From NCBI RefSeq assembly GCF_009936135.1, contig NZ_CP047901.1, positions 152,984-216,983 of the forward strand: DNA of 64,000 bases, written 5' to 3'. How positions within the stretch are numbered: the stretch's first letter is position 1; each line of letters opens with the position of its first letter. Shown here in pieces: positions 22,164 through 46,147 of this stretch. This stretch comes from Candidatus Chazhemtobacterium aquaticus (lineage in GTDB: Bacteria; Patescibacteriota; Microgenomatia; UBA1400; Chazhemtobacteraceae). The notes beneath the pieces were generated by a model, which was given only the letters and a program-made list of their open reading frames with translations, had not been told where the DNA came from and made no database searches. A program made the translations under genes and the position numbers.

Positions 22164-22166
22164 CTC

Positions 22167-26351: not shown

Positions 26352-26369
26352 CCATGCTTATACATTCTA

Positions 26370-26996: not shown

Positions 26997-27037
26997 ACTA
27001 TTACCCTAACAAAACCCAAACACGCAGTCAACTACCT

Positions 27038-27122
27038 GGCGGTGGGGACAGGACTCGAACCTGCAAGCCCTTGCGGGCGCCAGTTTTCAAGACTGGTTCC
27101 TTACCATTCGGAGCACCCCACC
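27038..27122 (-). tRNA. tRNA-Ser (anticodon TGA)
   Basis: Minus strand: acceptor GGTGGGG/CCCCACC, anticodon stem CCAGT/ACTGG with loop CT-TGA-AA, long variable arm, T-loop TTCGAGT. CCA encoded. Confidence 0.75.
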
Positions 27123-27151
27123 AACACCATAATTTTACCATTTTTCAGCCT

Positions 27152-27805: not shown

Positions 27806-27857
27806 TCTTATATCCTAAACCAAAAAAAAGACGCCCCCTAAAGGCGCCTTTCTTTTC

Positions 27858-28247: not shown

Positions 28248-28311
28248 CAATAGGAAACATTCTATCATCTTTAGCCTCAAAAATCAACTAAATAGCCCGA
28301 TATACCAACTA

Positions 28312-28572
28312 CTAAGCCCTTATCTCTTTAAACCACGTAATTATCTCCGTCAAATCAGTTCCCACAATACCCATGCCCGATGCTTTAATCACCAGCTGCG
28401 CTGTAAACAAATCGAACTCAGCCTCATCCAGATTTTTAAGCACTCCTTTCAAAGACTTCTGCACATCATCCTTTTTTTGGTTTTTTTTCAAAGCTGACCC
28501 CCACTCAAACCCCTCAACACAACTAGGTACCACCTCACTCCAAAATTTATCAGCCAACTTTAACTCACTCAA
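28312..28572 (-). CDS. hypothetical small protein
   Basis: 86-aa ORF overlapping the smpB start by 4 nt. Confidence 0.3.
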   Translation of the reverse strand: MSELKLADKFWSEVVPSCVEGFEWGSALKKNQKKDDVQKSLKGVLKNLDEAEFDLFTAQLVIKASGMGIVGTDLTEIITWFKEIRA

Positions 28573-29033
28573 TTTAGCCTCCTCTTTTTATAAGCTTGCT
28601 CTATTTCTCTCTTCTCACTTCTTTTCCTCAACTCCTCCCTTTTTTCGTACTTCTTCTTCCCCCGAACTAGAGCCAGCTCCACTTTTATTAAACCACGACT
28701 ATTATAGCACTTTAGAGGCACTACCGTCAAACCTTTTTGCCTCATTTTACCCGCCATCTCGTGCACCTCATCCCGCCTCAAAAGCAGCTTTCTTCGCCTC
28801 ACTGGGTCATACTCCTCATCACCTGAATACTCATACGGACTTATCTGCATTCCAACCACCCAAACCTCCTCTTTTCCACCATCATCCAACACCACTACCC
28901 GCGAACCACTCATCGATAACGCCCCCTTCTTCGCACTCTTAACCTCAGCACCCGTCAGCACTATTCCAGCCTGCCACTTATCTAGCACCTCATAATCACT
29001 CAAGGCCTTCTTATTTACCGCTTTCATGACCAT
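28569..29033 (-). CDS. smpB: SsrA-binding protein SmpB
   Basis: LSDYEVLDKWQAGIVLTGAEVKS...ISPYE...YDPVRRRKLLL...KGLTVVPLKCY...KVELALVRGKKKYEKRE matches the SmpB family. Confidence 0.85.
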   Translation of the reverse strand: MVMKAVNKKALSDYEVLDKWQAGIVLTGAEVKSAKKGALSMSGSRVVVLDDGGKEEVWVVGMQISPYEYSGDEEYDPVRRRKLLLRRDEVHEMAGKMRQKGLTVVPLKCYNSRGLIKVELALVRGKKKYEKREELRKRSEKREIEQAYKKRRLN

Positions 29034-29084: not shown

Positions 29085-30947
29085 TTATATCCCCACCACC
29101 CACACCTCACCCTCAATTACCACCATCAATCTACCTCTCTCTTCATCAAAATCTACCCCCCCTGCCCTACCAAAACCCTCCCAAACCAATTTCTGTAAGT
29201 AATCTCCACTCTCTCTATCAAACTCAACCACCGCCCCCATCTCTCTATCCCAAACCCACACCCTGCCTCTCTCCTCGCTTACCATTATCTTTTCAGGCTT
29301 CTGCCACTCCTCAACTGGCTTTAATTCATAATCAACTACTAAGCCTTGGTTTAATCTCACCACCTCCCCATTACTCGCCAACAACCACACCTCTCCATCA
29401 ATGGCCATATCCACCACTCCACTCATATCCACCACCACACCAGGCGACAAAAATCGCCTTCTCTTACCATAACCTTCCCCCGTTCCTGGAAACCTAAACA
29501 AGTCATCCCCAGCCACCACATACGCATTAATCCCATATCCCTCCACCAACCTACCTACAACTCCTTCCATATCAAGCCTTGCTGTCTCTTCTCCTTCTTC
29601 GCTCACCACCACCACGTCACTCCCGTTTAGAGCCAAAATCTCTTCATCTGCCCCCGCAATATCCACCACCCCACTTAAGCTCTCACCCCCAGCCACCACC
29701 TCACCACTTTTGTCACTCAAGCTTACTCTCACCACCACTCTCTCATCCTCACCCCACAAATACATCCACTCATCCCGAACATCCACTCCTTCCATCCTTA
29801 GTCCCTCCTTAAACACTCCAGCATCCAACCACATCTGCCCCTCTGTCCTCACCTCACCACTCACCTCCCACCACACCTCATCGACTCTCTTGGCCAACTC
29901 CGCCCACTCTTCACTCAACCTACCTTCTACAAATCTATCTCCCTGACTCACTATCTCTTCTTTTGCCTCTATAACCAAACTCCTCGATCTCACCGCGTTC
30001 ACACTCTTAAGTCTCACCGCTTCCTCCAGCGCATACTCAATCGGTTCGCTCACCCCCTCAAACTCCTCACGTTCCTTCATCACCGATCTTCTTCCAGCTC
30101 CAACCACCACACTTACTAAAAATATCACCAAAAACACACTCCCCAATACCATCGCCCACCGTCTCTTTCCACTCTCTTCACTTCGCAGCGTAATTCCTCT
30201 ACCACCCAATCCCAACTTTCTCTTTAATCTAGCTAAACCTCTCTTCCAACCAGGTTCTTCATTAACTACCATCACCTGTGCTTTTGATGGCTCTATCCCA
30301 CTTATCTCAGGCTCAACCAACTCAATAATGCCCTCTTGCTCATTATCAACAACCTCCTCAACTAACTTAATTCTTTTTACCTTTACCACCAACCCTGCCA
30401 CCTTAGCTCCATCCTCCATCTCTCCCATCTTAGCCACCATCTCAACCTCACTCGCCCCCTCACTCCAAATACCATTCACAAATTCCTCACTCCCTATCAC
30501 CACTTCATCCTCTTCCAACAACCAGCCAGACACCGCTTCTCCACCTCCCCAAACCTCCACTCTCTCCCCTCCTCTCACTAACACCACCTTCATACCTCCC
30601 CAACCTCCTATATACACTCCTCGCTTCCCCTCATCATCAACCAATACCTGACCCACCACTACGCTTCCAATATCTCCTATCTCACTTCTTAACCTGTCCA
30701 CTTGTTCAACCACCCACTCCCATCCTTCTTTTTCACCCAACACAAAACTCTCCACCACCTCCTCCATCAATCCTCTCCCCTTCTCTTTTACTCCCCCCTC
30801 GCCACTCATCACCTCCTCCAAACTCATTACCACCAACATCGCCCGACCCTTCTCACCACCACTCTCCCAACGCACCTGAGACCAAACCTCATCACTAGCA
30901 CCACCCACCACCTGCTTCCACTCAATTCCCAGTCTCTTATCTCTCAT
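29085..30947 (-). CDS. hypothetical Gly/Val/Glu-rich membrane-anchored protein
   Basis: 620-aa ORF with one central TM (AMVLGSVFLVIFLVSVVVGAG). Its composition is driven by the G/T-rich coding strand. It is far longer than any antisense ORF. Confidence 0.4.
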   Translation of the reverse strand: MRDKRLGIEWKQVVGGASDEVWSQVRWESGGEKGRAMLVVMSLEEVMSGEGGVKEKGRGLMEEVVESFVLGEKEGWEWVVEQVDRLRSEIGDIGSVVVGQVLVDDEGKRGVYIGGWGGMKVVLVRGGERVEVWGGGEAVSGWLLEEDEVVIGSEEFVNGIWSEGASEVEMVAKMGEMEDGAKVAGLVVKVKRIKLVEEVVDNEQEGIIELVEPEISGIEPSKAQVMVVNEEPGWKRGLARLKRKLGLGGRGITLRSEESGKRRWAMVLGSVFLVIFLVSVVVGAGRRSVMKEREEFEGVSEPIEYALEEAVRLKSVNAVRSRSLVIEAKEEIVSQGDRFVEGRLSEEWAELAKRVDEVWWEVSGEVRTEGQMWLDAGVFKEGLRMEGVDVRDEWMYLWGEDERVVVRVSLSDKSGEVVAGGESLSGVVDIAGADEEILALNGSDVVVVSEEGEETARLDMEGVVGRLVEGYGINAYVVAGDDLFRFPGTGEGYGKRRRFLSPGVVVDMSGVVDMAIDGEVWLLASNGEVVRLNQGLVVDYELKPVEEWQKPEKIMVSEERGRVWVWDREMGAVVEFDRESGDYLQKLVWEGFGRAGGVDFDEERGRLMVVIEGEVWVVGI

Positions 30948-33770: not shown

Positions 33771-34154
33771 ATGAAAAAACTTTACTTTAATCTTCTCACC
33801 CTTATCACTACATCTCTTCTTTTTCCCTCATCAGTTCTCGCTCAAAACCCTGGCGATCTGTTCTGTAACGATAGCTCCGGCATCGCCACTGCTATCGGCT
33901 GTGTCTCACTTGAGCCTGGTGACTTTGCCGGAGACATCCTAAGATTCTCTGTTGGCATTGGTGGTGGTATTGCCCTCCTTCTCCTTCTTTACGGTTTTAC
34001 CCTACTCACCATGTCAGCTGGATCGCCCGACAAAGTCAACGCTGCTAAAGAAATCATCACCTCCGCCATCGGTGGTCTTATTTTTGTCACCATGGCCACT
34101 GTCCTCATGGGTTTTATCGGTATCAACATTCTTAATCTACCCGGCCTTAATTAA
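33771..34154 (+). CDS. VirB2/TrbC-like pilin paralogue P1 (Sec signal peptide plus two hydrophobic helices)
   Basis: Signal peptide ...SSVLA|QNPGD. Mature part has helix 1 (SVGIGGGIALLLLLYGFTLLTM), a polar loop (SAGSPDKVNAAKE), helix 2 (IITSAIGGLIFVTMATVLMGFIGI) and a GINILNLPGLN tail. It is a paralogue of the nine downstream genes. Confidence 0.55.
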   Translation: MKKLYFNLLTLITTSLLFPSSVLAQNPGDLFCNDSSGIATAIGCVSLEPGDFAGDILRFSVGIGGGIALLLLLYGFTLLTMSAGSPDKVNAAKEIITSAIGGLIFVTMATVLMGFIGINILNLPGLN

Positions 34155-34158
34155 TAAA

Positions 34159-35310
34159 ATGCGTACAACAATCTTCCTTTTCATCTTCCTCACAAACCTC
34201 TTTCTTTTCTCCGCTTCCCCCGCTCAAGCCGAATGTTGCGCCGCCAGCAGTTCTACATGCACCGGACCCTTCACCTGCGAAGGAGGCGAACTTATCTGTA
34301 CCACCTCTGCCGAATGCCCTCGCGATCCTTCCTGTTTTGACAGTGGCCAACCTTGCAACTCACTAAAGCCCTGCTGCGAAGAGGGTTTTGCCTGTTCTCC
34401 AACTACTTCAACCTGTCTGTCAACCGCTGCCCCCACCCCAGGCCCAGAACCAAGACCTATTGAGTGTGCACTCGCCCACATCGGCGCCGGCAGGGGAGGC
34501 CAAAACTGGGACGTCACTTACTGTGTCGCCGCCGACACTATTGAGGACCTCCATCGCGTCGCCCAAATCACCGGCATCTGCCGCCGCGGCGCCACCAGCA
34601 TTCTCGGCCAGTATGTCAACAACTGCTCTTGTCATGACGACGATTGGTACGACAACCCGCTCACTGCCGTGGGGGCTCGAGCGGTCTGCTGTGTCGCCGG
34701 ACTAGGTCGCTGCCCGTCAGCTGTTCGCACTACCCAAAGTGTCTCCGGCCAATTCCCCACTCTTTTTGACCCAAACACCAACCGCTACTACACCTGTTTC
34801 ACTCTCCAAGGCATTGATCGAAACGTTGGTATCATGGAAGTTCAGATCAAAGACGCCGATGGGCAACAAGTCTGTAGTGTTCCTCGCGTCACCGTCGCTC
34901 CGGGCAACTACAGCTGGTGGGAATACTTTGACAACACCCTTGAAACCCGCTTCGACACCTCTCTGCCTTTCTACGAAGACCCCACCGAACAAGATCGCTA
35001 CGATCTCACCTGTAGTACTGTCACTGGCAAGCGCGGCATCAACACCGCCATTGGCTGCATTGCCGTCAAACCAGTCGAATTTACTCAAGATTTCCTCACT
35101 GTCAGTATAGGCATTGGTGGTGGTATAGCTCTTTTACTGCTTCTCTATGCCACTGCTCTTATTACCCTTTCTCAAGGCAATCCTCAAAAAATCCAGTCGG
35201 GACAACAAATCATCGCCGCCGTCATCCAAGGCCTCATCCTCATTACCCTCTCAGTAGTTATGCTTAACTTCCTTGGTATTAACATTCTCAACCTCCCTGG
35301 TTTACAATAA
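34159..35310 (+). CDS. pilin-fusion P2: signal peptide, ~290-aa cysteine-rich extracellular domain, C-terminal VirB2-like pilin module
   Basis: The true start is the ATG at 34159 (MRTTIFLFIFLTNLFLFSASPAQA|ECC...). The ORF-track start at 33952 overlaps P1 in another frame. The mature N-domain has ~30 Cys (ECCAASSSTCTGPFTCEGGELICTTSAECPRDPSCF...). The C-terminal ~90 aa (GINTAIGCIAVKPVEF...SIGIGGGIALLLLLYATALITL...GINILNLPGLQ) is near-identical in pattern to P1. Confidence 0.55.
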   Translation: MRTTIFLFIFLTNLFLFSASPAQAECCAASSSTCTGPFTCEGGELICTTSAECPRDPSCFDSGQPCNSLKPCCEEGFACSPTTSTCLSTAAPTPGPEPRPIECALAHIGAGRGGQNWDVTYCVAADTIEDLHRVAQITGICRRGATSILGQYVNNCSCHDDDWYDNPLTAVGARAVCCVAGLGRCPSAVRTTQSVSGQFPTLFDPNTNRYYTCFTLQGIDRNVGIMEVQIKDADGQQVCSVPRVTVAPGNYSWWEYFDNTLETRFDTSLPFYEDPTEQDRYDLTCSTVTGKRGINTAIGCIAVKPVEFTQDFLTVSIGIGGGIALLLLLYATALITLSQGNPQKIQSGQQIIAAVIQGLILITLSVVMLNFLGINILNLPGLQ

Positions 35311-35314
35311 AGCC

Positions 35315-35653
35315 ATGCTACTTGCTCAAGCTGACATTACCAATGTCCCTAACCCTGCCACCAACTTTACCGACCCCGCCACCTGGAATATTGCTGGCCT
35401 TCTTACTGGGGGTACTGGAAGTTTTAATCTTGTCAACCTAGCCTTCTTCCTCGTCGGCTTCGTCTTCTTCTCAAACCTAGTCATCGCCGCCGTCACCTAT
35501 ATTATGTCCGAAGGTTCTCCCGATAACGTCTCCAAAGCCAACTCGCGCTTCACCACTGGATTAATTGGCCTCATCGTTGTCTTTGCCAGCTTTGTTATAG
35601 TCCGTTTAGTTGCTGCTCTTTTCAGTCTTGATGCTAGCGTTCCAATAAACTAG
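35315..35653 (+). CDS. VirB2/TrbC-like pilin paralogue P3
   Basis: Two-helix hairpin ...LVNLAFFLVGFVFFSNLVIAAVTYIMSEGSPDNVSKANSRFTTGLIGLIVVFASFVIVRLVAALF. The start is uncertain, either 35273 or 35315. Confidence 0.45.
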   Translation: MLLAQADITNVPNPATNFTDPATWNIAGLLTGGTGSFNLVNLAFFLVGFVFFSNLVIAAVTYIMSEGSPDNVSKANSRFTTGLIGLIVVFASFVIVRLVAALFSLDASVPIN

Positions 35654-35662
35654 AAACAAAAC

Positions 35663-36061
35663 ATGAAAACAAAAAAACTTCTCATTCTTCCACTAACCAC
35701 TCTCTTCTTTATCTCAAATCCCCATCTTGCCCACGCTCAACTCAATCCCTTTCAAACCAACCTTAAAGACATGTTTCCTGCTGCCCAAAACCTTCCCAAT
35801 CCAGGCAGTGGTGGCGTTCTCTCTACTTTCCTCAACCCAATCGTTAGTTTCGTTCCCATCGTCACTGGCATTCTCTCCTTCATTATTATCATCATTGCCG
35901 GCATCAAATATATAAGTCACGCAGGCAATGCCCAAGAAACCAAAAAAGTCAACGATATGATAACATACGCCTTAGTAGGACTGGCCTTGTCAGCCATCGC
36001 TTTCTGGATCACCCGCCTTCTCTTTATGGTCGGCGCTGGTGACTCTCAAAACTTATTCTAA
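35663..36061 (+). CDS. VirB2/TrbC-like pilin paralogue P4
   Basis: Signal peptide ...NPHLAHA|QLN, followed by two hydrophobic helices separated by the loop HAGNAQETKKVNDM. Confidence 0.5.
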   Translation: MKTKKLLILPLTTLFFISNPHLAHAQLNPFQTNLKDMFPAAQNLPNPGSGGVLSTFLNPIVSFVPIVTGILSFIIIIIAGIKYISHAGNAQETKKVNDMITYALVGLALSAIAFWITRLLFMVGAGDSQNLF

Positions 36062-36063
36062 CC

Positions 36064-36435
36064 ATGAACCTAATCAAACTCCTTATACCCGTCGTTTACG
36101 CTCAAACCGATCCTATTGGCACCATTCAAGCTCCCGCCTCTATTGTTACTGGACCCAGCGATATCTACAAAATATTTAACTCAGTCGTTAATCTCTTAGT
36201 TGTCGTTGCTGGTATCTGGTTTCTTGTCCAAATCATTCTAGCCGGTTTCAACTACATCACCGGTGCTGGTGATAGCAATAAAACTGGCGAAGCCATGAAA
36301 AAAATCACCGACTCTGTCATTGGTCTTGTGGTTGTCGCCGCCGCCTTTATCATCACCTACATTGCTGGTGCTCTCTTTTTTGGCACAGGCTTTAACATCC
36401 TACAACCAACCATAAAAACCATTACTGATTTCTAA
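36064..36435 (+). CDS. VirB2/TrbC-like pilin paralogue P5
   Basis: Short leader MNLIKLLIPVVYA|QTD. Helix 1, then loop GAGDSNKTGEAMKKITDS, then helix 2. Confidence 0.55.
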   Translation: MNLIKLLIPVVYAQTDPIGTIQAPASIVTGPSDIYKIFNSVVNLLVVVAGIWFLVQIILAGFNYITGAGDSNKTGEAMKKITDSVIGLVVVAAAFIITYIAGALFFGTGFNILQPTIKTITDF

Positions 36436-36440
36436 TAATC

Positions 36441-36812
36441 ATGAATCTAGTCAAACTTTTCATCCCCCAAGCTCACGCTGCATTCACCCAAGGAGGTGAT
36501 ATTGTCGGCCCGGGATCTCATCAAAACATCAGCTCCGCTACTGCTGGCACCTCACTTGAAACCCTCATTAGCACTCTTCTTGGTGCACTCACTGCCATCG
36601 CTGGTTTAGGTTTCCTCATCTACTTCGTCATTGGCGGCATCAACTGGATCACCGCTGGTGGTGACCAACAAAAACATCAAAAGGCCACCAAACAGCTTAC
36701 CGACGCCGCCATAGGCCTTATCGTCGTCGTCGTCGCCTACGCTATCGCCGGTATTGTTGGCACAGTCCTTGAAGTTGATATATTAAATCCAGCCAGCCTA
36801 CTCGGCTTATAA
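36441..36812 (+). CDS. VirB2/TrbC-like pilin paralogue P6
   Basis: Leader MNLVKLFIPQAHA|AFT. Conserved core GGINWITAGGDQQKHQKATKQLTDAAIGLIVVVVAYAIAG. Confidence 0.55.
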   Translation: MNLVKLFIPQAHAAFTQGGDIVGPGSHQNISSATAGTSLETLISTLLGALTAIAGLGFLIYFVIGGINWITAGGDQQKHQKATKQLTDAAIGLIVVVVAYAIAGIVGTVLEVDILNPASLLGL

Positions 36813-36819
36813 CCACAAT

Positions 36820-37158
36820 ATGTTTATCAAATCCGCCTACGCTGCCATCTCCAACCCTGCCCTCCAAAATTTTGGTACCGACACTACTGGTGGAGCCGGT
36901 TTAGCTTTCTATGTTTCTCAGCTCTGGAAAACCCTCGTCGTCGTTGGCGGCCTCGCCTTCCTCCTTTACACCATTATTGGCGGAATCAACTGGGTCATTG
37001 CCGGAGGCGACAAAACCAAAGTCGAATCCGCTCAAAAACACCTCACCAACGGACTCACCGGCCTTATCGTTCTTGCCGCTTCTTACGCCATCATGGCCGT
37101 GGTCAGTGATGTTGTTGGTATCAATATTCTTAATATTGATTGGACCTTTGGCAACTAA
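36820..37158 (+). CDS. VirB2/TrbC-like pilin paralogue P7
   Basis: Leader MFIKSAYA|AIS. Core GGINWVIAGGDKTKVESAQKHLTNGLTGLIVLAASYAIMA. Confidence 0.55.
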   Translation: MFIKSAYAAISNPALQNFGTDTTGGAGLAFYVSQLWKTLVVVGGLAFLLYTIIGGINWVIAGGDKTKVESAQKHLTNGLTGLIVLAASYAIMAVVSDVVGINILNIDWTFGN

Positions 37159-37162
37159 AACC

Positions 37163-37477
37163 ATGAATATTATCAAACCCGTCTACGCTCAAACATCAGA
37201 TATTGATAGCCAAGTCACCGGCTTCTTTGCTTATAGCAACGTTGGTGATCTTGTCAGCACCCTCGTCACCACTGCCATTGTCGTTGGTGCCCTTGCCACC
37301 CTTATCTATCTCATCATAGGTGGTATCAACTGGATCACCTCAGCCGGAGATACCCAAAAAGTCGAATCCGCTCAAAAACACCTCACCAACGCCCTTATTG
37401 GCCTAGTAATTCTCGTCGCTGCCTATGCCATTTTCACTGTCGTTAAAGCTTTTCTTGGTATCGGTGATGAAATCTGA
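37163..37477 (+). CDS. VirB2/TrbC-like pilin paralogue P8
   Basis: The true start is the ATG at 37163 (MNIIKPVYA|QTSD). The ORF-track start at 36911 overlaps P7 in another frame. Core GGINWITSAGDTQKVESAQKHLTNALIGLVILVAAYAIF shares an identical ~34-nt stretch with P7. Confidence 0.55.
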   Translation: MNIIKPVYAQTSDIDSQVTGFFAYSNVGDLVSTLVTTAIVVGALATLIYLIIGGINWITSAGDTQKVESAQKHLTNALIGLVILVAAYAIFTVVKAFLGIGDEI

Positions 37478-37543
37478 CCCATTTGACAGGGTCAAACCCA
37501 TCTGAATATAATCAGCTTAACCATTAATTATCTTATCCAAAGC

Positions 37544-37888
37544 ATGAAACTACTTGAATCGCTTATCAAACCAGTACAAGCCCAGTCCGATCTTGGTGTT
37601 CCCGAACCAGATTACGCTGTTAGTAGCATTGGCAACCTTCTCTCTGGTCTAGTTAACGCCGCTATCGTTATCGGCGCTCTCGCCGCCTTCCTCTATCTCA
37701 TCCTTGGTGGCCTTCAATGGATCACCGCCGGTGGAGATAAAACCAAAACCGAAGAAGCTCAGAAAAAAATCACTAATGCCATTATCGGCTTAGTCATTAT
37801 TGCTGCTGCCTATGCCATCATCACCGTCGTTGTCCAATTCCTTGGAATCGGTGAAATCAGCAGTCTTTCTCTTCCTGCCATCGAATAA
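37544..37888 (+). CDS. VirB2/TrbC-like pilin paralogue P9
   Basis: Leader MKLLESLIKPVQA|QSD. Core GGLQWITAGGDKTKTEEAQKKITNAIIGLVIIAAAYAIIT. Confidence 0.55.
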   Translation: MKLLESLIKPVQAQSDLGVPEPDYAVSSIGNLLSGLVNAAIVIGALAAFLYLILGGLQWITAGGDKTKTEEAQKKITNAIIGLVIIAAAYAIITVVVQFLGIGEISSLSLPAIE

Positions 37889-37916
37889 CTTTATTTTCAA
37901 CAAAGTTAATCAAAAG

Positions 37917-37941
37917 AACCTTCCACCAGGAAGGTTTTTTT
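37917..37941 (+). terminator. Rho-independent terminator between pilin genes P9 and P10
   Basis: AACCTTCC-ACCA-GGAAGGTT forms a perfect 8-bp stem with a 4-nt loop, immediately followed by a T7 run, in the 80-bp gap after P9. Confidence 0.65.
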
Positions 37942-37968
37942 GTTATCCCGCCATGCTACAATCTGCTC

Positions 37969-38322
37969 ATGAAGCTAAACTTCACCGCTCATGCCCAAGA
38001 CTGGGCTAGTATTGACCCAAACTGCGTTGCTGGACCCAACAACGATGTTGCCACCATCCAGGGCTTCAAATGTATCATCACTAATCTACTAGCTATCATC
38101 GCCCCCATCATCACCCTCGTCGCCATTGGCATGATCATCTTAGGCGGCGCCAAAATGATAGCAGGCGCAGATAACCCCAAAGCCGTTGACGAAGCCAAAA
38201 AAATCATCACCTTCGCCATCATTGGTGTCATTGGTATTGCTGCTGCCTGGATCATCCTCGTCCTCATTCAAGAATTTACCGGCGCTCCCGTCACCCAGTT
38301 CCAAATCATCACCAATCCTTAG
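37969..38322 (+). CDS. VirB2/TrbC-like pilin paralogue P10 (divergent, Cys-containing)
   Basis: Leader MKLNFTAHA|QDW. Two helices with the loop GGAKMIAGADNPKAVDEAKKII. Two Cys in the mature N-region. Confidence 0.5.
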   Translation: MKLNFTAHAQDWASIDPNCVAGPNNDVATIQGFKCIITNLLAIIAPIITLVAIGMIILGGAKMIAGADNPKAVDEAKKIITFAIIGVIGIAAAWIILVLIQEFTGAPVTQFQIITNP

Positions 38323-38386: not shown

Positions 38387-41300
38387 ATGCGTTATCTACT
38401 CGCCACCCTCTCCACCCTACTAATCACATCTCTACTCACCAACACAGTTTTTGCCCAAGCTAACCCTGCGGGAACCGTTGGACCTGAAATAGCTGTTCCT
38501 AATGCGGGCACCACTGTCATAGCTGCCCAAAGTTACACTGGTGTTGTCTCTGTGATCAACTACATCGATATTGATGGTCCAGTCGCCTTTAACTCAGTGC
38601 CCATCAAAAATCTTAATGTTCCCACCATTTTAAGAGTCGACATTTCCGCTAACACCTCCAATGAAGACATTGTTGCCTACGCCAACAGTCTTAACAGCGT
38701 TGTCGACACTGAGTTTCCTAATGGTCTGAAAGTTGTTGTCCTAAGCGTCGAAACTAACAATCTCGACTGGTGGTACGGCAGCCCTGGCCAGTCCAATGAT
38801 GAAGCCTCCATCCGCCAAGGCGCGCGAGAATATGCCGAAAAATTCATCCTCTTTGCCCAAACTATTCGGCAAGACCTTCCCCTAGCCCCAGCTCCACCAG
38901 ATCTTTTCAATGGCGTCTTTAACGCCGATCCCTGGATGGACGAATTTACTCGTTCAGGCACATGTCCTTATGTGGATTACAATGTCTCCGATATTTTTGA
39001 GCTAACTCCCACTGTTGGTGGCGGAGCCTATGCTTGGAACACTGTCCACCTCTATCAACAAGAAAAAATGTGTGGCAAGGATGTCATCCATTTTGAAGGC
39101 TGGGGTATTAATCCCAACAACCCTCCGCCAACCGTTAAACAACAAGTTGATTGGTTTCAAAACACTCCTCTCCCTCCTGGCATTGAAACCGCCACCACTC
39201 TCATTCTTCCTCACTGTCCTCCAGAATATGACGCTAGTCTTGACCAAACCGTCAACGGCTTCATAGATTGGTGGTACTACATCAACGGCCGGGTCTTTAC
39301 CTCCGATGGACTTGAAATTGATCCCGAAAGCTGTACCGAAAGAGAAAAACCTGATTGTTACTACGACGGCAATCTCACCCGACCTGGTGGTACCTGCAAA
39401 TCCAGAGTTCCCTACGTCCATAGTGCTCTTGAACAATACGCACCTCAATGTACTCTCACGCCTCAAGGATCACTCTCCCGAACTTCTTGTGGCATTCCAC
39501 CCACCATCACCAATTTGCCCAATGACCCCCAGGAGTACATGGATGTACGACTCCTTGTTAACTACTCACAACTCCAACTTGGTGGTTTAGGACCAGACCA
39601 CACCGCCTGGCGATCTATACCTATCGACAACCTAGCTCGCGGCTACCCTTACAACGCCCTTGCCGATAAACCACTTTCTGTTACAGAAGATACTCCCAAA
39701 GAAGCCTTTCGTACCTGGTGGCGCCTATTAAGCCTCCGTCAACAAATTGAGGCCAAAGCTGAATTCTTCCAACGCTTCCGTATTCAAGACCCTCCCATTT
39801 TTGACTCCGAGTTTGCCTATTCTCAAGGTGGCAGCACTCAGACCTACACCATCAGTGAACTAGAGAACATTCTTCCCGACTGTCTTCGCCTTTTTCCAGT
39901 TCCCAATCGCTGTGGCATAACCGCTGATTCTCTTACCCCTGAACAAACCTACTACAGGCTCCCTGAAACTACTCGTGCCATGTACGACGCCTTTCTCCCT
40001 TTCGACTTCGACAACGTGCGCGGATATCTTGCTCTTCAATACAAAGACCCTACCGATTTCCTATCAGGAGAAAACCGCAATCGAGCCGGGGTCATCGCCG
40101 ACAATCTCCCATATATTCAAGCCCTAGTCGATATCTTAAGCAATAAAGTTAGTGGCATCTTAACCGCCCTAAGCCCTCAATGGCTAAACACCCTAAGAAC
40201 CGACACTCTACCTACCTCAAAAGATTACACCATCGAATACGAAGAAAGTGGCGAAATCAACCTCACCCCCGAATCCCAACAATCCTTCACTCACATGGCA
40301 GCCGCTGCTCGCACTAACTCAGAATATGGAGCAGACTGGGCTTCAGATCTAGCTACCACCTGTTACAATCCCGAAAATCAAGACCCAACTCTTTCTTCAC
40401 CCCTCACCTACCCTCAAAAGCTTGAGGCGCAAGACCCATATCTTCCTCTTCCTGGATCAGAATATACCGACGTTCTTGATCAATCAGTTCTTATCCCCAC
40501 CGAGACTTCAATTTACTATGGCACTCCCACCACCTCTGGATCAGATATCACTTGTACCTACGAAACTGGCAATACTTGCTCTTACGACATCAACACCGGC
40601 TCTTGTCCTCCTCTTTACATCACCAATACCACAGGTGGCATTCCTGGACAAAGAGACCCGGACCTTCCGGTTCGTTCTCAAGTCGGTCGTTCCATCATCA
40701 CCTTTGCCAACCCCCTTATGACAGACATTAGTCGCCTCATCTCCGAACCGTATCTTGGTATGCCTGACACCAGTGGTACATACAACTGGGCCTCCCATAT
40801 GAACCTCTCTCTCTACCATCAAATGCTCACTCGCGACTTTACCCCCCAACCCCAACCTTTTACCGAAATGTTTTCCGAATACACAGAAGATCCCATGTAT
40901 GCCAAACAAGCTCAGTATCAAGCTAGTAAAGACAATGACTCAGCTGTCACCCTCTCTGCCCAAGCCGGTGGAACTGGTGACCAAACAGGACTAGTCGCAC
41001 GCAAAGGTGGCCAACTTGAAATTGATCTCTGCAAACTTCGAAACTTCTGGCTCCGTCCCGATTCTCTCCAAATTGGTGACCCTGAAGATTGCCAACAACT
41101 TGATCAATACATCTCCACACCAAACCAACCCTATGAACTCACCACTCCTGGATCAACCGACTCAGCCTGTCAGGTCAAACAATATCTTTTCGAAAACATC
41201 TGTCCTGGCGGATCATGCTCTTCATACGTCGTCGACACAGCCCTCTCCACCTCTTGTTCTGGTAAAGTTATAAATCCTTACTTCGCCATCACTGTTGCTC

Positions 41301-41737
41301 TCAACGAAAACGGAGGGCTAACCAGCATTCACAGCGACGGCACCAATGTTAAACACTTCGGATGTGCTCCTTTTGATATCGGTGCCACAATGTACGGACA
41401 TGACATTCCCTCCAAAACTTCCTGTTTTACTGACACCATATCCAACGACTGTCGAGACAATAAAACTGACCTAGAAACCCTTCAAGAATATGGTTACTCC
41501 GCCTCCTATCTTCGCACCTTAAACAACATCCTGAGAGTCTTAGGTGCATGCTCCGCAGACCAAGTCAATCAACAACAGCTTTGCGTTCCCATCTGGGTTA
41601 GTCCTTCCCAGGCCCAATCCATCTCCAACAGTCTTCTACCCATTCTCACCTCTCAACGTAGTCTCTGGTTCCGCTACTACCAGGGGTATCTTGAAGCCAT
41701 GGCCACCGACAATCAGTGTTCACTCTACCAACCATAG
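38387..41737 (+). CDS. large (1116 aa) secreted protein of unknown function, candidate pilus- or T4SS-associated surface/adhesin component
   Basis: Sec signal peptide MRYLLATLSTLLITSLLTNTVFA|QA. No TM or sorting motif after it. Many Cys, Trp and Tyr. Co-oriented and tightly spaced with P10 upstream and the VirB6-like gene downstream. Confidence 0.5.
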   Translation: MRYLLATLSTLLITSLLTNTVFAQANPAGTVGPEIAVPNAGTTVIAAQSYTGVVSVINYIDIDGPVAFNSVPIKNLNVPTILRVDISANTSNEDIVAYANSLNSVVDTEFPNGLKVVVLSVETNNLDWWYGSPGQSNDEASIRQGAREYAEKFILFAQTIRQDLPLAPAPPDLFNGVFNADPWMDEFTRSGTCPYVDYNVSDIFELTPTVGGGAYAWNTVHLYQQEKMCGKDVIHFEGWGINPNNPPPTVKQQVDWFQNTPLPPGIETATTLILPHCPPEYDASLDQTVNGFIDWWYYINGRVFTSDGLEIDPESCTEREKPDCYYDGNLTRPGGTCKSRVPYVHSALEQYAPQCTLTPQGSLSRTSCGIPPTITNLPNDPQEYMDVRLLVNYSQLQLGGLGPDHTAWRSIPIDNLARGYPYNALADKPLSVTEDTPKEAFRTWWRLLSLRQQIEAKAEFFQRFRIQDPPIFDSEFAYSQGGSTQTYTISELENILPDCLRLFPVPNRCGITADSLTPEQTYYRLPETTRAMYDAFLPFDFDNVRGYLALQYKDPTDFLSGENRNRAGVIADNLPYIQALVDILSNKVSGILTALSPQWLNTLRTDTLPTSKDYTIEYEESGEINLTPESQQSFTHMAAAARTNSEYGADWASDLATTCYNPENQDPTLSSPLTYPQKLEAQDPYLPLPGSEYTDVLDQSVLIPTETSIYYGTPTTSGSDITCTYETGNTCSYDINTGSCPPLYITNTTGGIPGQRDPDLPVRSQVGRSIITFANPLMTDISRLISEPYLGMPDTSGTYNWASHMNLSLYHQMLTRDFTPQPQPFTEMFSEYTEDPMYAKQAQYQASKDNDSAVTLSAQAGGTGDQTGLVARKGGQLEIDLCKLRNFWLRPDSLQIGDPEDCQQLDQYISTPNQPYELTTPGSTDSACQVKQYLFENICPGGSCSSYVVDTALSTSCSGKVINPYFAITVALNENGGLTSIHSDGTNVKHFGCAPFDIGATMYGHDIPSKTSCFTDTISNDCRDNKTDLETLQEYGYSASYLRTLNNILRVLGACSADQVNQQQLCVPIWVSPSQAQSISNSLLPILTSQRSLWFRYYQGYLEAMATDNQCSLYQP

Positions 41738-41773
41738 CTTTTTCTTCTCATTATCTTGTTATAATCAACCCAG

Positions 41774-43564
41774 ATGCTCAAGAAAATCCTTCTCACTTTC
41801 ACCACTCTCTGCCTGTTTTTTACCTTATCCATTCCCGCTCATGCTCAAACAGACACTAAAGACATCTTAAGAGATTTCTGCGACAGTCGCCAAGGCAATG
41901 TTATCAATCTAGAAACCTGGTATGCCGGCAGATGCGATCCTGAGAGTGAAACATCAACTTTCATGGGTCAAAACCGCGGCTTTGGAGATATTGTCATCCT
42001 CCATCTCTATGAACTGATAAATGGCGAGCAAAACAAGGCAGATGAGGATATGATCAAAGACTTCTTCGAGTCCCTTGTTGACACCATTTCTCAAAACAAC
42101 GGCTTTAATTATCTCACCTACATTCAAGAAAATAATGCCACATTCAAAAACACATCATCGAACTCAGGTATGATATCCCAAATTAGTGGTGGCATTTCCT
42201 ACTTAATCTCAACCCCTCCGGCGAGTACCCAACAATATATCGCCTACATCAATAACAACCTCCAAAGACATAGCCTAACCCAACCAGCATACGCTCAAAA
42301 CGCCACTGGAGAAGGTGGTGGATATGGCTTTGCCCGTCTTGAAGGTTTTCTACCTCTCTGGAAAGCTTTCCGCAACATAGCCTACTTCTTCTTCATTCTC
42401 GCATTCGTCATCTACGGCTTCATGATCATGTTCCGTGTCAAAATTAACCCTCAAACAGCTGCCAATATTCAACTAGCTCTTCCTAAACTAATAGTCACCC
42501 TCATCCTCATCACCTTTTCCTATGCCATAGTCGGTCTACTTATCGACTTTATGTGGGTTGGTTACTATCTTATACTCAACACCTTAGACAGCTTTGGAGT
42601 CTTTGGAGAATCCAAAGGAGTACTTGGGTTCGTCAATGATATATTCCGCGGCCTCGCCTCAGGAGGAGGCGGACTAATCCTCACCTCAATTTTCCAAACA
42701 ATTTTAGCTGTTTACGCCGGCGTGCCTGGAACCTTAGGAGCCCTCACCGGAATATCTGGAAACATATTTACCATTATTATGGCACTCACTACTTTTACCG
42801 GCATAGGGCTAATTCTCATCCTTATCATACTCATTGCCGTCATTATCGCCCTCATTAAGCTATTTGTTAAACTTGTCACTGCTTACGTCACCATCTTTAT
42901 CAACCTAGTTCTTTCTCCCCTCATACTTCTTAGCGGTATTTTTCCCGGCAAGAATGACGTTTTTAGTACTTGGATTACCAACCTTGTTGCTAACATTATT
43001 GTCTTCCCTGTCGCCTCCATCCTTCTTCTTTTCTCCGGATATTTTATGACCCAACCAGTCGCCTCCTTAATCCAGGATACATTAAATGGTTTAGCAAACA
43101 TAATCCCCGGAATAGACGGGAATGTCTCACTGTCCCTAATAGAAAACACCCAAAGAATTCCTAACGTCCCCCTCCTATCACCTCAAACTGAGTGGCTTAG
43201 TAATTTTCCTATAATAGGAAGCGCGGTTGCCGCTGGAGCGTCCGAGTGGTATGCCCTGATAGGCCTCGCTCTTCTCCTCATGTCACCTAAGTTCGTAGAT
43301 ATGGTCATGGATGCCTTCAAAGTCAAACCATTCCCCTACGGTTCTGCTGCCATAGAATCTTTAACCGCAGGCTACAAAGCTGAGGCGGGCTTAATTGGTA
43401 AAGCTACTGAAGAAGGAGGGGTGTTAGCGAGAAGATTGCCTAGGTTTAGCAGTAAACTTAGAGGTAGGCAGGAGCAAATCGACACAAGCGTCAACATCCT
43501 CTCAGGAGGAAAAGTCAAACCAGCCGGCACTGAAGGAGATCAAACTCCAGTTAGTAGGTCATAA
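41774..43564 (+). CDS. VirB6/TrbL-like polytopic inner-membrane T4SS component with N-terminal signal peptide and ~190-aa extracytoplasmic domain
   Basis: Signal peptide MLKKILLTFTTLCLFFTLSIPAHA|QTD, followed by at least 6-7 hydrophobic helices (e.g. IAYFFFILAFVIYGFMIMF, LIVTLILITFSYAIVGLLIDFMWVGYYLIL, GIGLILILIILIAVIIALIKLFV...). Confidence 0.5.
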   Translation: MLKKILLTFTTLCLFFTLSIPAHAQTDTKDILRDFCDSRQGNVINLETWYAGRCDPESETSTFMGQNRGFGDIVILHLYELINGEQNKADEDMIKDFFESLVDTISQNNGFNYLTYIQENNATFKNTSSNSGMISQISGGISYLISTPPASTQQYIAYINNNLQRHSLTQPAYAQNATGEGGGYGFARLEGFLPLWKAFRNIAYFFFILAFVIYGFMIMFRVKINPQTAANIQLALPKLIVTLILITFSYAIVGLLIDFMWVGYYLILNTLDSFGVFGESKGVLGFVNDIFRGLASGGGGLILTSIFQTILAVYAGVPGTLGALTGISGNIFTIIMALTTFTGIGLILILIILIAVIIALIKLFVKLVTAYVTIFINLVLSPLILLSGIFPGKNDVFSTWITNLVANIIVFPVASILLLFSGYFMTQPVASLIQDTLNGLANIIPGIDGNVSLSLIENTQRIPNVPLLSPQTEWLSNFPIIGSAVAAGASEWYALIGLALLLMSPKFVDMVMDAFKVKPFPYGSAAIESLTAGYKAEAGLIGKATEEGGVLARRLPRFSSKLRGRQEQIDTSVNILSGGKVKPAGTEGDQTPVSRS

Positions 43565-43618: not shown

Positions 43619-46147
43619 CTACCTGCCAGCTGAAGGAACCGCTCTCGAATCAAATTTCCTTTGTCGCTCAAGCTTAGCCTTCTTTCTATCACCCTCATTC
43701 CTACTCGACCCAAAAACCAAAACGGTCTTCCCCCAAACCAATTCTGCGTACCTCCGAAAGTCGCTCATTACTCTCACACTTCGTTCATAAGCCTCCATGT
43801 CCTCCTCGTATTGTTCATTGGACGCATACTCTTCAGGCACTGGTTTCTTACTCAAAGCAAAAAAACCCGAATCAAGCGCTCTGTGAAAAGCCATTCTTAC
43901 GTTACCTGGGTCATTAAACTGATTAGCCTTTTGGTTATACGGACTGTAATACCATAACAAGGATTTTGCATACAACAACTTCACCAAATCAGCCTCTTCA
44001 GGCGTCAACACACCCTGCGCTTTAAGTGCTTCAATTTTAATTTTCCATCCAACCCACATACCTTCAGTAGTTAACTCTTGTTGCTTAACCTCGGGAATCT
44101 TGATCACCATCTCCCATACCCCCTTAGAAGCAACTGCCGCAGTCACCATGTTCTCGTATGGCGATCTATCCATTTCGGACAAGGCTAATCTAGATATCAA
44201 TCTGCCCTCACGGATTAAATTCCATCCATTTTGCCCTGACACAGTCATCAACTCAAACCCATCCTTCATTAACCTAGGAATGTCTCCCCCACCTCTTTCA
44301 TACTTCTCTCCTTCTGCTCCACTCAAGAATCTATCAAGCGCTCCCCAAAACCGACCTGGCCCTGACTCTCTCTCACTCTTCAAAAACTCACCTACCGGTA
44401 ATATACCCTTCTCTAAAAACTTCTGTCTAAAATTTACCGCATTATATAGAGGATGGCCAGGCCACAATCCTGCCTCCGCCTCATGGCTTTGCCAAAAATC
44501 CCAAGCGAGATCCAAAGCGTCGCGAACTCCTGGGCTACCTCCACCAAAGGCTTGAATCATTCTACGCCTCACCTCATTTCTGCTCGCATCAGTCAGCTCC
44601 CCACCTGGAGCATACCCCCCCCTCTCCACCTCAGTATACAACCACTGCAATGCCCTATCCATTAACGCCACTGAAAATCCTCCAGCCTCTTGCATCCTAC
44701 CCAAAACCACATAATCGGGCACCCTCAAACCCACCTGATCCCACTCTGGTTTTTTCATCAACTCCTGCCAATTCTCCACCCATGTCGAGTAATCCCCACC
44801 TTTTCTCGCCACCATGCCATTATGCAGCCTTACTCGCATCCCAATCTCCGCTTCCAACACCTCTCTGTACGCCCCCATCACCTCGGGAACACGATATCTA
44901 GCAAAACCTAAATCAATTACCCCAATTCCTGACATCAGCTCACTTGGGTCTACAAAATCCATTGAGTTAGACAATCTCTGTCTTACCAACCTTCTAACCT
45001 CAACAAACAATTCCTCACGCGATGCAGGCAACTCAACCACACCAGAGTCACTCTCCACTGAACCACTATCTCTGCCAACCGCACTTCTGGCTCTAACCTC
45101 ATCTCTTCTTCCAACATACTCCTCATATCTCCCTGATCTTCTTATCTCTCTCATCACATTCCTTCTCACACTTCGATTCATATATCCTCTATCCCTATAC
45201 TCAGCCATCCAGTCAATCAACAGACCAACGTCACCATCTTCAGCCAATGCATCCATCGCCGCATAATACTCTCCCTCAAAGTTCTGGATGTCTCTCATAA
45301 TCTCAGGATTATCTCTCACATCCTTTCTTATCTCCGAACAACTACCACACCTTAACCCTCCGTCGTTATGACCTCCACAGCTATCGCAATCAAACGGCGT
45401 TCCCCAATAAGGCTCCTCCATTGGCTCTTCATCATCATCTTCTTTTCTCTCTCCATTACCACCATCAGGGGGTGGAGGCACCCCATCCCCTCTACCACCT
45501 TCCCCATTATTCCTTCTGTTGCCACCCCCTCGTCCACCTCCTTCAGTTTCACCTCCACCTCCACCACCCCCACTATCTCCACTCACCGGATCTAATGACT
45601 GGTTAGGCACAGCAATATTCATTCTAGCTTGCGCAATTTCCTCGTCGGTCATTGGCCTATGTCCTTCTTCACCGTCATCACTACCAGTGTTATCGCTTTC
45701 ACTCTCATTCACACTCTCACTTCGAGGGGGAGTCCACTCCTCCCAACTCTCAGGTACGCTCGCTTTTATCCTCTCCTTTACATCTCCTCTAACTGGAAAA
45801 CCATTCTTGTTAATATTCTCCATCTCTCTCACGAATCCTGCATGCACCTGCGCTCGTAACACCTGTCGTTCCTCAATTTCTTCTGGCGTTGGACCTATTC
45901 TCTGCTCCAATACCCCCAATCTCACCACTCCCTCTCTTTTGCCCAAACCAATCATTGTCCTTAGCTCCATATCACTCGCTTTTCTATCCGGATTAATCAC
46001 ATTGACCGTCTGACCACCCCTCTCCTCAGTCACAAACATACCTTTCAACTCATCCCTCAAAGCATCTCCGGAGTTTTCCAAAACCTGAACCACAGTTTCC
46101 TGTCTTCGTCTTTCTCGTTCCATATCTGACTGAGCCTTCTCACTCAT
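43619..46147 (-). CDS. hypothetical 842-aa protein with Gly-rich low-complexity segment and Cys4 zinc-ribbon-like motif
   Basis: Minus-strand ORF inside the + strand locus. Contains GGGGGGGETEGGGRGGGNRRNNGEGGRGDG and CDSCGGHNDGGLRCGSC. No recognised family. Far longer than the low-complexity + strand ORFs overlapping it. Confidence 0.4.
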   Translation of the reverse strand: MSEKAQSDMERERRRQETVVQVLENSGDALRDELKGMFVTEERGGQTVNVINPDRKASDMELRTMIGLGKREGVVRLGVLEQRIGPTPEEIEERQVLRAQVHAGFVREMENINKNGFPVRGDVKERIKASVPESWEEWTPPRSESVNESESDNTGSDDGEEGHRPMTDEEIAQARMNIAVPNQSLDPVSGDSGGGGGGGETEGGGRGGGNRRNNGEGGRGDGVPPPPDGGNGERKEDDDEEPMEEPYWGTPFDCDSCGGHNDGGLRCGSCSEIRKDVRDNPEIMRDIQNFEGEYYAAMDALAEDGDVGLLIDWMAEYRDRGYMNRSVRRNVMREIRRSGRYEEYVGRRDEVRARSAVGRDSGSVESDSGVVELPASREELFVEVRRLVRQRLSNSMDFVDPSELMSGIGVIDLGFARYRVPEVMGAYREVLEAEIGMRVRLHNGMVARKGGDYSTWVENWQELMKKPEWDQVGLRVPDYVVLGRMQEAGGFSVALMDRALQWLYTEVERGGYAPGGELTDASRNEVRRRMIQAFGGGSPGVRDALDLAWDFWQSHEAEAGLWPGHPLYNAVNFRQKFLEKGILPVGEFLKSERESGPGRFWGALDRFLSGAEGEKYERGGGDIPRLMKDGFELMTVSGQNGWNLIREGRLISRLALSEMDRSPYENMVTAAVASKGVWEMVIKIPEVKQQELTTEGMWVGWKIKIEALKAQGVLTPEEADLVKLLYAKSLLWYYSPYNQKANQFNDPGNVRMAFHRALDSGFFALSKKPVPEEYASNEQYEEDMEAYERSVRVMSDFRRYAELVWGKTVLVFGSSRNEGDRKKAKLERQRKFDSRAVPSAGR

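Follow-up and report, generated by a model that had tools for sequence, protein, structure and literature searches.

A tandem array of ten pilin-like genes was characterized in a stretch of 64,000 nucleotides (hereafter the window) from Candidatus Chazhemtobacterium aquaticus, a member of the Microgenomatia within the Patescibacteriota (contig NZ_CP047901.1, positions 152,984 to 216,983, forward strand). The locus is very probably a PF18895 pilin-like array belonging to a patescibacterial type IV secretion system (T4SS), and it is a large, well-preserved case of a published locus type and not a new system. Comparative data favour an ordered heteromer with one major subunit, and the model preferred here is an ordered heteromeric T4SS fibre or stalk, in which the ninth gene product (P9) would be the major subunit and a strain-variable module would form the tip or adhesin; our confidence in this model is close to even.

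The ten-gene array and its protein family

Positions 33771-38322 (+ strand) of the window contain ten consecutive, back-to-back pilin-like open reading frames (ORFs), named P1 to P10, nine of which encode proteins of 104-132 aa and one a 383-aa fusion. The intergenic gaps from P1 to P10 measure, in order, 4, 4, 9, 2, 5, 7, 4, 66 and 80 bp. An earlier sequence-only reading had described ten + strand genes separated by 2-80 bp, including one fusion, and its coordinates, sizes and gaps were all reproduced. In the list below, L numbers denote loci of related genomes, percentages are protein identities to the orthologue in the locus named, and dN/dS is the ratio of non-synonymous to synonymous substitution rates.

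P1, 33771-34154, + strand: 127 aa; the leader (25 aa) is of the Sec type, the N-segment has two Cys and the C-terminus reads GINILNLPGLN; PF18895 E 1.2e-7, 32.1 bits; L094 99%, L093 94%, L003 69%
P2, 34159-35310, + strand: 383 aa, with a signal peptide, a Cys-rich N-domain of ~270-290 aa and a C-terminal pilin hairpin; PF18895 E 9e-4 across residues 307-372
P3, 35315-35653, + strand: 112 aa, ATG start with an alternative TTG at 35273; PF18895 E 2.2e-5; L094 70%, L093 95%
P4, 35663-36061, + strand: 132 aa, with a 26-aa Sec-type leader; PF18895 E 5.1e-7, 30.1 bits; L094 69%, L093 93%
P5, 36064-36435, + strand: 123 aa, with a 14-aa leader; PF18895 E 2.4e-9; dN/dS 0.013 against L093
P6, 36441-36812, + strand: 123 aa; PF18895 E 6.1e-14, the top match of the ten; NF045849 E 8.9e-9
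P7, 36820-37158, + strand: 112 aa, with a 9-aa leader; PF18895 E 1.9e-5; L094 100%, L093 97%
P8, 37163-37477, + strand: 104 aa; PF18895 E 1.5e-9; NF045849 42.3 bits against a cut-off of 40
P9, 37544-37888, + strand: 114 aa; PF18895 E 1.1e-11; dN/dS 0.034 (L093) and 0.065 (L003)
P10, 37969-38322, + strand: 117 aa, with two Cys in the N-segment; PF18895 E 4.5e-9

All ten proteins matched the Pfam family PF18895 (T4SS_pilin), with E values from 6e-14 to 9e-4. The gathering score of this family (26.6 bits) was passed by seven of them (P1, P4, P5, P6, P8, P9 and P10; 30-52 bits), P1 and P4 only barely, while P2, P3 and P7 scored below it (19.7-25.1 bits) yet with E ≤ 9e-4 and in-register alignments. 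A hidden Markov model (HMM) of the family, run over the 64-kb window, recovered exactly ten copies, none of them outside 33771-38322. The P9 protein is identical to QHO63188.1 of Ca. Chazhemtobacterium aquaticus, which is annotated as 'pilin'.

Pairwise identity among the ten ranges from 15 to 55% (mean 27%), the N-segment being the most variable part (20%); P1 pairs with P2, their cores being 48% identical in the alignment. The multiple alignment of P1 to P10 recovered a common core with the consensus GGxxWITAGGDKxKTEEAQKKITNAIIGLVIIAAAYAI, in agreement with the charged-loop and second-helix consensus proposed from the sequence alone.

Hydropathy analysis (Kyte-Doolittle) revealed two hydrophobic segments of ~30 residues each in every member, and an AlphaFold2 (AF2) model of P9 placed helices at residues 24-61 and 66-100, with core residues scoring above 90 in the predicted local distance difference test (pLDDT). 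The loop carries two to four Lys residues; the N- and C-segments on either side of the hairpin are either neutral or acidic. Sec-type leaders (24-26 aa) are restricted to P1, P2 and P4, the other members having leaders of 5-14 aa, such as MKLLESLIKPVQA↓Q and MNIIKPVYA↓Q (the arrow marking the predicted cleavage site). Leaders of P5, P6, P7, P9 and P10 are not extendable upstream, as each ORF begins at the first start codon past an in-frame stop. Both leader types recur family-wide, and in all ten members as well as their homologues the leader ends in [V/A/L]-x-A followed by Q or A, where cleavage is predicted. Thus, of the proposed shared architecture of leader, helix, loop, helix and tail, the predicted two-helix hairpin holds for all ten proteins and the Sec-type leader for three.

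The sequence GINILNLPGL(N/Q) was observed at the extreme C-terminus of P1 (34122-34151) and P2 (35278-35307) in nearly invariant form. It is also (nearly) invariant across all P2 homologues, and P5 to P7 end in related G(I/F)NIL(N/Q) tails. The tail could represent a processing or recognition signal.

The relationship of the family to canonical VirB2 was assessed with profile methods. With the TrbC/VirB2 HMM (PF04956; cut-off 27.9 bits, reached by none of the ten), P4 gave the best match (19.7 bits, E 0.001), followed by P5 (14.9 bits), and the other eight did not match. A broad pilin alignment compared by hhalign with eight plasmid VirB2/TrbC sequences yielded a probability of 34.6% (E 4e-4). 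The aligned region spans 73 in-register columns, beginning at the leader end and running through helix 2. Searching the pilin profile against PDB sequences gave nothing meaningful (best E 0.009, to a transmembrane segment of a viral glycoprotein), and a tblastn search with P9 gave no match among 72,556 plasmids, so that the family is undetectable in sequenced plasmids at that sensitivity. The term VirB2-like, used in the sequence-only reading, thus applies insofar as the array encodes a T4SS-associated PF18895 hairpin family within a T4SS cluster, whereas homology to canonical VirB2/TrbC is weakly indicated and not established.

The relationship to the NCBIfam family NF045849 (Mbov_0395 family pilin-like conjugal transfer protein), which is found in integrative and conjugative elements (ICEs) of Mycoplasma, is stronger and more informative, nine of the ten proteins matching it with E values from 4.5e-11 to 3e-3. 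P8 exceeded the cut-off of 40 bits, P1, P3-P7, P9 and P10 scored 17-35 bits, and P2 did not match; the proteins appear by these scores to be homologous to NF045849 members while representing a different equivalog. The VirB4 protein encoded in the window also matched the Mycoplasma ICE VirB4 model (285 bits). Together, these matches suggest that the hairpin protein belongs natively to the T4SSs of monoderms, as opposed to having been acquired from diderms, a question left open in a census of patescibacterial arrays (Quinonero-Coronel et al. 2025, PMC12102498).

The same matches bear on an alternative in which the ten proteins are small integral translocon subunits, or form a short wall-spanning stalk, instead of an extracellular pilus; small VirB3-like proteins and the Mycoplasma ICE proteins CDS13/CDS15 would be their counterparts. 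The corresponding genes of these ICEs have been called VirB3-like (PMC12857230), and monoderm T4SSs are described as generally pilus-less (PMC12102498, PMC10633639). Fold searches were non-specific and do not discriminate between the two readings, and a VirB5-like nucleator was not found in the window. However, a separate PrgI/VirB3 homologue is encoded downstream of the array, and the A-x-A↓Q leader ends parallel the invariant A-x-A-Q of the VirB2/TrbC alignment. Ten paralogues, one with a putatively strong promoter of its own and one with a 270-aa Cys-rich fusion, are also more readily reconciled with a tipped polymer than with a channel of fixed stoichiometry. This alternative is considered unlikely, although it is the strongest of those weighed here.

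Gene order, the P9 gene and the variable cassette

Pilin copy number was compared with published and newly scanned loci. In PMC12102498, PF18895 and related profiles were searched over 3,035 Patescibacteria genomes, yielding 441 VirB2-like arrays of 2-11 genes, most abundant in Microgenomatia, with a mean identity of 25% and a maximum of 54%; the T4SS often lies beside dnaA/dnaN and is usually without a relaxase. Our own scan covered one genome per species and 80 loci, the lineage-named ones all being Microgenomatia-type (Gottesman-, Woese-, Collier-, Chisholm- and Cerribacteria); some of the others bear apparently mistaken placeholder names, such as 'uncultured Pseudomonadales'. The largest contiguous array comprised six genes in 36 loci, seven in 24 and 9-11 in a few, and a layout of 2 + 6/7 + 1 was frequent. 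Given the published range and the mode of six to seven, ten members lie at the upper end and are not exceptional for the group, in contrast to the earlier suggestion that a family of this size is unusual.

Public gene calls on relatives' contigs include only one of the ten array genes in L003/L004 (L003 6400-10950) and two of ten in L094 (7500-12100), with short spurious ORFs called on the G-rich opposite strand in place of the pilins. The strand bias of these genomes likely misleads the gene finder, so that array genes are missed and protein-based censuses probably undercount arrays in this lineage.

The same ten genes occur in the same order in L093, L003/L004 and L094, and the best match of each window paralogue is its positional orthologue. 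Against L093, dN/dS was 0.013-0.085 for all ten genes (dS 0.55-1.0), and against L003 it was 0.065-0.185 with saturated dS, all values being simple Nei-Gojobori estimates in a genome of extreme base composition. When subfamilies were defined by the nearest window paralogue (some labels being ambiguous), their order was collinear in ~80 species-level loci, typically x-5-6-(7)-9-9-10, and 1-3-(4)-5-6-7-8-9-10 in the most closely related lineages (L006, L017, L067, L071 Collierbacteria). For example, the P5 subfamily occupies a constant array position throughout Microgenomatia. Eight of the ten genes are packed 2-9 bp apart, which suggests co-transcription. One-to-one orthology, purifying selection, fixed order and operon-like packing indicate distinct parts of one assembly, and not interchangeable antigenic variants.

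The P9 gene is distinguished by its putative expression signals. A predicted sigma-70-type promoter, TTGACA-18-TATAAT (37483-37512, + strand), which matches the consensus at 12 of 12 positions, is located in the 66-bp gap before P9. Its hexamers and spacing are identical in L093 and L003, where synonymous sites are near or beyond saturation, and 12/12 matches are also present in L005 and L006. A predicted intrinsic terminator follows P9 (37907-37945, + strand), with the core stem AACCTTCC-ACCA-GGAAGGTT and then seven T residues (RNA fold -18.6 kcal/mol, z -6.1); both stem and T-run are kept in L093 and L003. Across the class, promoter-like sites (at least 10/12) recur at the same relative positions, upstream of the first gene of the array and of the P9-like gene; simple terminator matches in related arrays were located after the P9-like gene in 17 of 17 cases.

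P9 alone among the ten combines a perfect conserved promoter with its own terminator. Of all paralogues it is also the closest to the consensus, and most relatives' arrays contain two to three copies of its subfamily. Its own conserved promoter and terminator suggest separate and strong transcription of P9, which is probably the major subunit.

Strain-level variation was concentrated in P2 to P4. Compared with L094 (GCA_048500475.1), which closely resembles the window, the flanks of this module are 96-100% identical at the nucleotide level, and the proteins are 99% (P1) and 100% (P7-P9) identical, as opposed to 51% for P2, 70% for P3 and 69% for P4 (52-84% nucleotide identity over ~34150-36100). 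L093, which is more distant genome-wide, carries the window's P2-P4 alleles at 92-95%, an incongruence indicative of recombination of P2-P4. At least three deep allele types of this cassette were distinguished, represented by the window with L093, by L094 and by L003; L093 and L094 are metagenome assemblies, in which chimerism could shift breakpoints but could not create divergent alleles.

Ten full-length homologues of P2 were identified, and the N-domain has nine conserved Cys positions. Relative to four homologues (P0077, P0078, P0079 and P0081), the predicted extracellular N-domain of P2 is 34-39% identical and the C-terminal pilin core 88-89%: a variable domain, probably facing the host, on a constant anchor. 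Among 1.84 billion cluster representatives, the N-domain was detected in 14, each with the length of a fusion protein (278-354 aa); AF2 modelled it as mostly β-structure at low confidence (pLDDT 59.6). Different N-domains are found in other long pilins of the family, including one with a match to Pfam fn3. P2 is a candidate adhesin or tip subunit and forms the core of the variable cassette.

Mosaicism was also observed in the two genes that follow the array (38387-43564), which encode a secreted protein of 1116 aa and a VirB6-like protein with an outer N-domain. Compared with L094 12150-17053, patches of 69-86% nucleotide identity lie among stretches of 96-100%, the profile of the secreted protein ranging from 69 to 98%. 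Recombination-driven variation seems to extend to other putatively exposed parts of the T4SS.

An alternative reading of the array is that the ten proteins are major pilins of equivalent function, one or a few of which are in use at any one time, which would provide antigenic variation or a broader host range. Such a model was put forward for the paralogous VirB2 proteins of Bartonella and Anaplasma, and it has also been raised for Patescibacteria, in which versatile arrays may help adaptation to various host strains (PMC12102498). It would be in keeping with the low pairwise identity, with the exposed N-segment as the most variable part, and with the differences in P2-P4 from strain to strain. 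Conversely, orthology is one-to-one throughout, with strong purifying selection on each paralogue (dN/dS 0.01-0.19), subfamily order is kept across the whole class, eight of the ten genes are probably co-transcribed, and a single gene has a putatively strong promoter of its own. Neither gene conversion nor pseudogene cassettes nor indications of an expression site were seen. A system of alternative variants is, in view of these data, improbable, somewhat more so than the membrane-component alternative.

The proposal of antigenic diversification, made in the sequence-only reading, is consequently not upheld for the ten members as alternatives. Diversification between strains does occur, within the P2-P4 module alone. 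A heteropolymeric fibre fits best among the three readings offered earlier, with the extracellular filament itself still conjectural.

The surrounding T4SS cluster and other features of the window

The genes located 3' of the array are, in order:

38387-41737, + strand: secreted Cys-rich protein of 1116 aa, directly after the array, with a signal peptide and no further transmembrane (TM) segment
41774-43564, + strand: polytopic membrane protein of 596 aa, with a signal peptide, an outer domain of ~170 aa and at least six TM segments
43619-46147, - strand: acidic, Gly-rich ORF of 842 aa without a family match
46224-47282, - strand: insertion sequence (IS)-type integrase (rve)
47364-48353, + strand: PrgI/VirB3-like protein of 329 aa (PF12666, E 1.6e-8)
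48355-49476, + strand: TrsD-like protein of 373 aa (NF041427, E 4.7e-8; N-terminal region of VirB4_plasma, E 2.4e-11), with a Pro/Thr-rich tail
49539-51437, + strand: VirB4 ATPase of the CD1110 family (NF045971, 362.5 bits against a cut-off of 325; Pfam P-loop_TraG, AAA_10 and CagE_TrbE_VirB)
51483-54104, + strand: M23 membrane protein of 873 aa, with PF01551 at the C-terminus (E 1e-20) and TM segments
54121-55158, + strand: bitopic protein of 345 aa with one N-terminal TM segment, the last gene before dnaN
55161-58010: dnaN and dnaA, adjoining the T4SS cluster

The VirB4 protein, encoded 11 kb downstream of the array, is identical to QHO63196.1 of Ca. Chazhemtobacterium aquaticus and is of the monoderm MPF-FATA type. 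BLASTP revealed no similarity between the 373-aa TrsD-like protein and the VirB4 of the window, the TrsD label deriving from NCBIfam alone. Neither the 1116-aa, the 596-aa nor the 345-aa protein had a family match in Pfam or NCBIfam. Homologues of the 1116-aa protein occupy the same position in L093, L094, L017 and L006. The 596-aa protein is 35% identical (E 2e-47) to the product of the gene following the array in L001, and homologues were located 3' of the array in 56 of 81 loci; it is a candidate divergent VirB6 equivalent. The 873-aa M23 protein is a candidate cell-wall hydrolase of the T4SS, in the role of VirB1, and the 345-aa protein is possibly a VirB8-like component, a guess from its position.

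In L006 and L017, the array and the genes for the secreted, polytopic, PrgI, TrsD and VirB4 proteins all lie within ~10 kb, and linkage of the array to VirB6-like, PrgI, TrsD and VirB4 genes is kept in many genomes. The order shared with L006 and L017, together with the recurrence of the polytopic homologue, indicates that the array is part of a monoderm (MPF-FATA-like) T4SS cluster. Its physical membership is borne out by the VirB4, TrsD, PrgI and M23 hydrolase genes downstream. Neither a relaxase nor a coupling protein was found in the 64-kb window. That the ten genes encode unrelated small membrane proteins (holins, bacteriocins, immunity proteins or type IV-pilus minor pilins) merely located near a T4SS is very improbable: small tandem two-TM proteins can resemble holin or bacteriocin-immunity loci, yet Pfam and NCBIfam gave no match to holins, bacteriocins or type IV prepilins even at E 0.1, the G↓F-x-x-x-E prepilin motif is present in none of the ten, and the linkage to T4SS genes is conserved across many genomes.

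The segment between the VirB6-like gene and PrgI (43619-47282, - strand) holds the 842-aa ORF and the integrase. In the equivalent slot, L006 and L017 carry a minus-strand ORF of 716-742 aa and no IS. No similarity to the 842-aa protein was detected for the L006 ORF, and the fetched loci, including L017, gave no match when searched with this protein by tblastn. By sequence comparison, the position of this slot is conserved while its contents are unrelated. The 842-aa ORF was considered as a coupling protein and rejected, as it showed no similarity to the type IV coupling protein of L001 and no P-loop family match.

The + strand of the whole window (1-64000) consists of 30.1% C and 14.1% G, with a GC skew of -0.1 to -0.64 in every 2-kb bin. 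The bias is independent of gene orientation, third-position skew (GC3 skew) being ~-0.6 to -0.9 for genes on the + strand and +0.5 to +0.86 for most of those on the - strand, and there is no flip of the skew at dnaA/dnaN. This bias was considered as an artefact or a novelty and set aside, being a published property of the genome and of the order UBA1400 (29.83% C, 14.97% G), for which unidirectional replication was proposed (Kadnikov 2020, PMC7143001). The same genome paper mentions type IV pili, and neither the T4SS nor the pilin array. The bias is also visible in the proteins: + strand genes contain long Pro/Thr/Ser/Gln-rich tracts (e.g. 48355-49476 and 54121-55158), and - strand genes are rich in Gly, Glu, Val, Arg and Trp (e.g. 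29085-30947 and 43619-46147).

Among 49 start codons, a Shine-Dalgarno core (GGAG, GAGG or AGGA) was present in the 22 nt upstream in none of 22 + strand genes and in six of 27 - strand genes. A TAnAAT box ending ~6-10 nt before the ATG was observed in several genes, among them P10 and those starting at 41774, 35315, 21471 and 14214; that of P10 (TACAAT, 37957-37962) lies 6 nt before the ATG and is kept in L093 and L003. The missing Shine-Dalgarno sequences and the TAnAAT boxes suggest leaderless or Shine-Dalgarno-independent initiation.

Strand bias is much weaker at 5700-20100, where GC3 skew is ~0 at 5707-6993 and 15976-17118 and GC content is 0.355-0.41. The genes of this region encode a secreted SNase nuclease with Ig-like domains, a restriction-like nuclease domain, glycosyltransferases, NUDIX and DUF2130 proteins, and the region may represent recently acquired DNA not yet at the strand bias of the host. 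A further region (20724-28248) holds seven tRNA genes (Asn, two Arg and four Ser) and a tmRNA gene (27859-28248, - strand; tag EPASEAAFAFAYAA). It adjoins an ORF (28569-29033, - strand) syntenic with smpB (PF01668) of L003 and L094, and lies near genes for a ComF-like phosphoribosyltransferase, dnaG and a sigma-70 factor.

Proposed assembly and comparison with known systems

In the favoured model of an ordered heteromeric fibre or stalk, each protein would insert as an N-out/C-out hairpin with the Lys-rich loop inside, its leader being cut at [V/A/L]-x-A↓Q. The ten would represent old, individually conserved, non-interchangeable subunits in a set order. P9, produced in excess, would build the bulk of the fibre or wall-spanning stalk, with P5-P8 and P10 as minor, low-abundance subunits. 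P1 and P2-P4 would constitute a front module, in which the disulfide-rich extracellular domain of P2 would serve as host-binding tip or adhesin, and the swapping of P2-P4 between strains by recombination would tune host specificity while the core remains constant. Assembly would be carried out by the VirB6-like, PrgI, TrsD and VirB4 proteins, and the wall would be opened by the M23 hydrolase. The role of the system would be contact and exchange with a host cell rather than conjugation, which is the likelier function given that no relaxase or coupling protein is encoded nearby. This is in line with Southlakia epibionticum, in which, according to Wang et al. 2023 (PMC10633639), a six-gene pilin array is essential and a recognisable relaxase or coupling protein is absent.

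Several observations weigh against the favoured model. A T4SS filament has never been seen in any Patescibacterium, a pilus being regarded only as a possibility (PMC12857230), and the window yielded neither a coupling protein nor a VirB5-like tip protein. Leaders of 5-14 aa are atypical of signal-peptidase substrates, and the link to canonical VirB2/TrbC is tenuous. Furthermore, the dN/dS values come from a simple method applied to strongly biased sequences, the promoter and terminator of P9 represent motif matches with conservation, and the cassette comparison involves metagenome assemblies.

The fuller version of the favoured model, a true heteromeric monoderm T4SS pilus with a P9 shaft, P5-P8 and P10 as minor subunits, P2 as a swappable disulfide-rich tip adhesin and retargeting of hosts by P2-P4 exchange, is possible, though we regard it as doubtful. 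If true, the array would be a modular host-range determinant of an ultrasmall episymbiont, and this would suggest that pilin-like subunits are native to monoderm (MPF-FATA) T4SSs, as hinted by the Mycoplasma ICE homology, and not borrowed from diderms. In the single Patescibacterium amenable to genetics, both the T4SS and its pilin array are essential (PMC10633639, PMC11665869). Within the ordered heteromer favoured by the comparative data, P2-P4 would be the likely host-specificity element. This is testable for groups working on Saccharibacteria, as it distinguishes an abundant paralogue, a tip paralogue and a host-range paralogue.

Among known systems, the published patescibacterial VirB2-like arrays are the closest. 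As described in PMC12102498, they share with the present locus the PF18895 family, the tandem arrangement, the level of divergence (mean 27% and maximum 55% here, against 25% and 54%), an MPF-FATA-type VirB4 with TrsD and PrgI, the lack of a nearby relaxase or coupling protein, the adjacency to dnaN/dnaA and the class Microgenomatia, in which such arrays are most abundant. There is no difference in kind, ten contiguous genes being near the top of the range. The fixed subfamily order with one-to-one orthology, the dedicated promoter and terminator of one member, and the recombining P2-P4 cassette, with its variable extracellular domain on a constant anchor, are not described in the available portions of PMC12102498 and PMC10633639.

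VirB2/TrbC of diderm T4SSs (Agrobacterium VirB2, RP4 TrbC) resemble the array proteins in size, in leader-hairpin layout, in the A-x-A↓Q leader end and in a Trp with small residues after helix 1. The loop here is longer and Lys-rich, the host is monoderm, and the leaders are mostly of 5-14 aa, whereas the invariant A-x-A-Q of the VirB2 alignment lies ~30-47 residues from the start. The NF045849 proteins of Mycoplasma ICEs share the two-helix core of ~80 residues and a monoderm T4SS, although that family is named for a mobile conjugative element, in contrast to ten chromosomal copies with no relaxase or coupling protein found nearby.

Clusters of VirB2 genes in Bartonella and Anaplasma phagocytophilum likewise consist of several tandem virB2-like genes per T4SS locus. 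They differ in that the hallmarks of variation were not found here, where dN/dS is at most 0.19, order is class-wide and only P2-P4 are variable. Finally, the major and minor pilin operons of type II secretion systems and type IV pili offer a functional analogy, with one abundant subunit, ordered low-abundance paralogues and a larger possible cap, in an unrelated family that, unlike the present one, has the prepilin G↓F motif, PilD-type processing and a different assembly ATPase.

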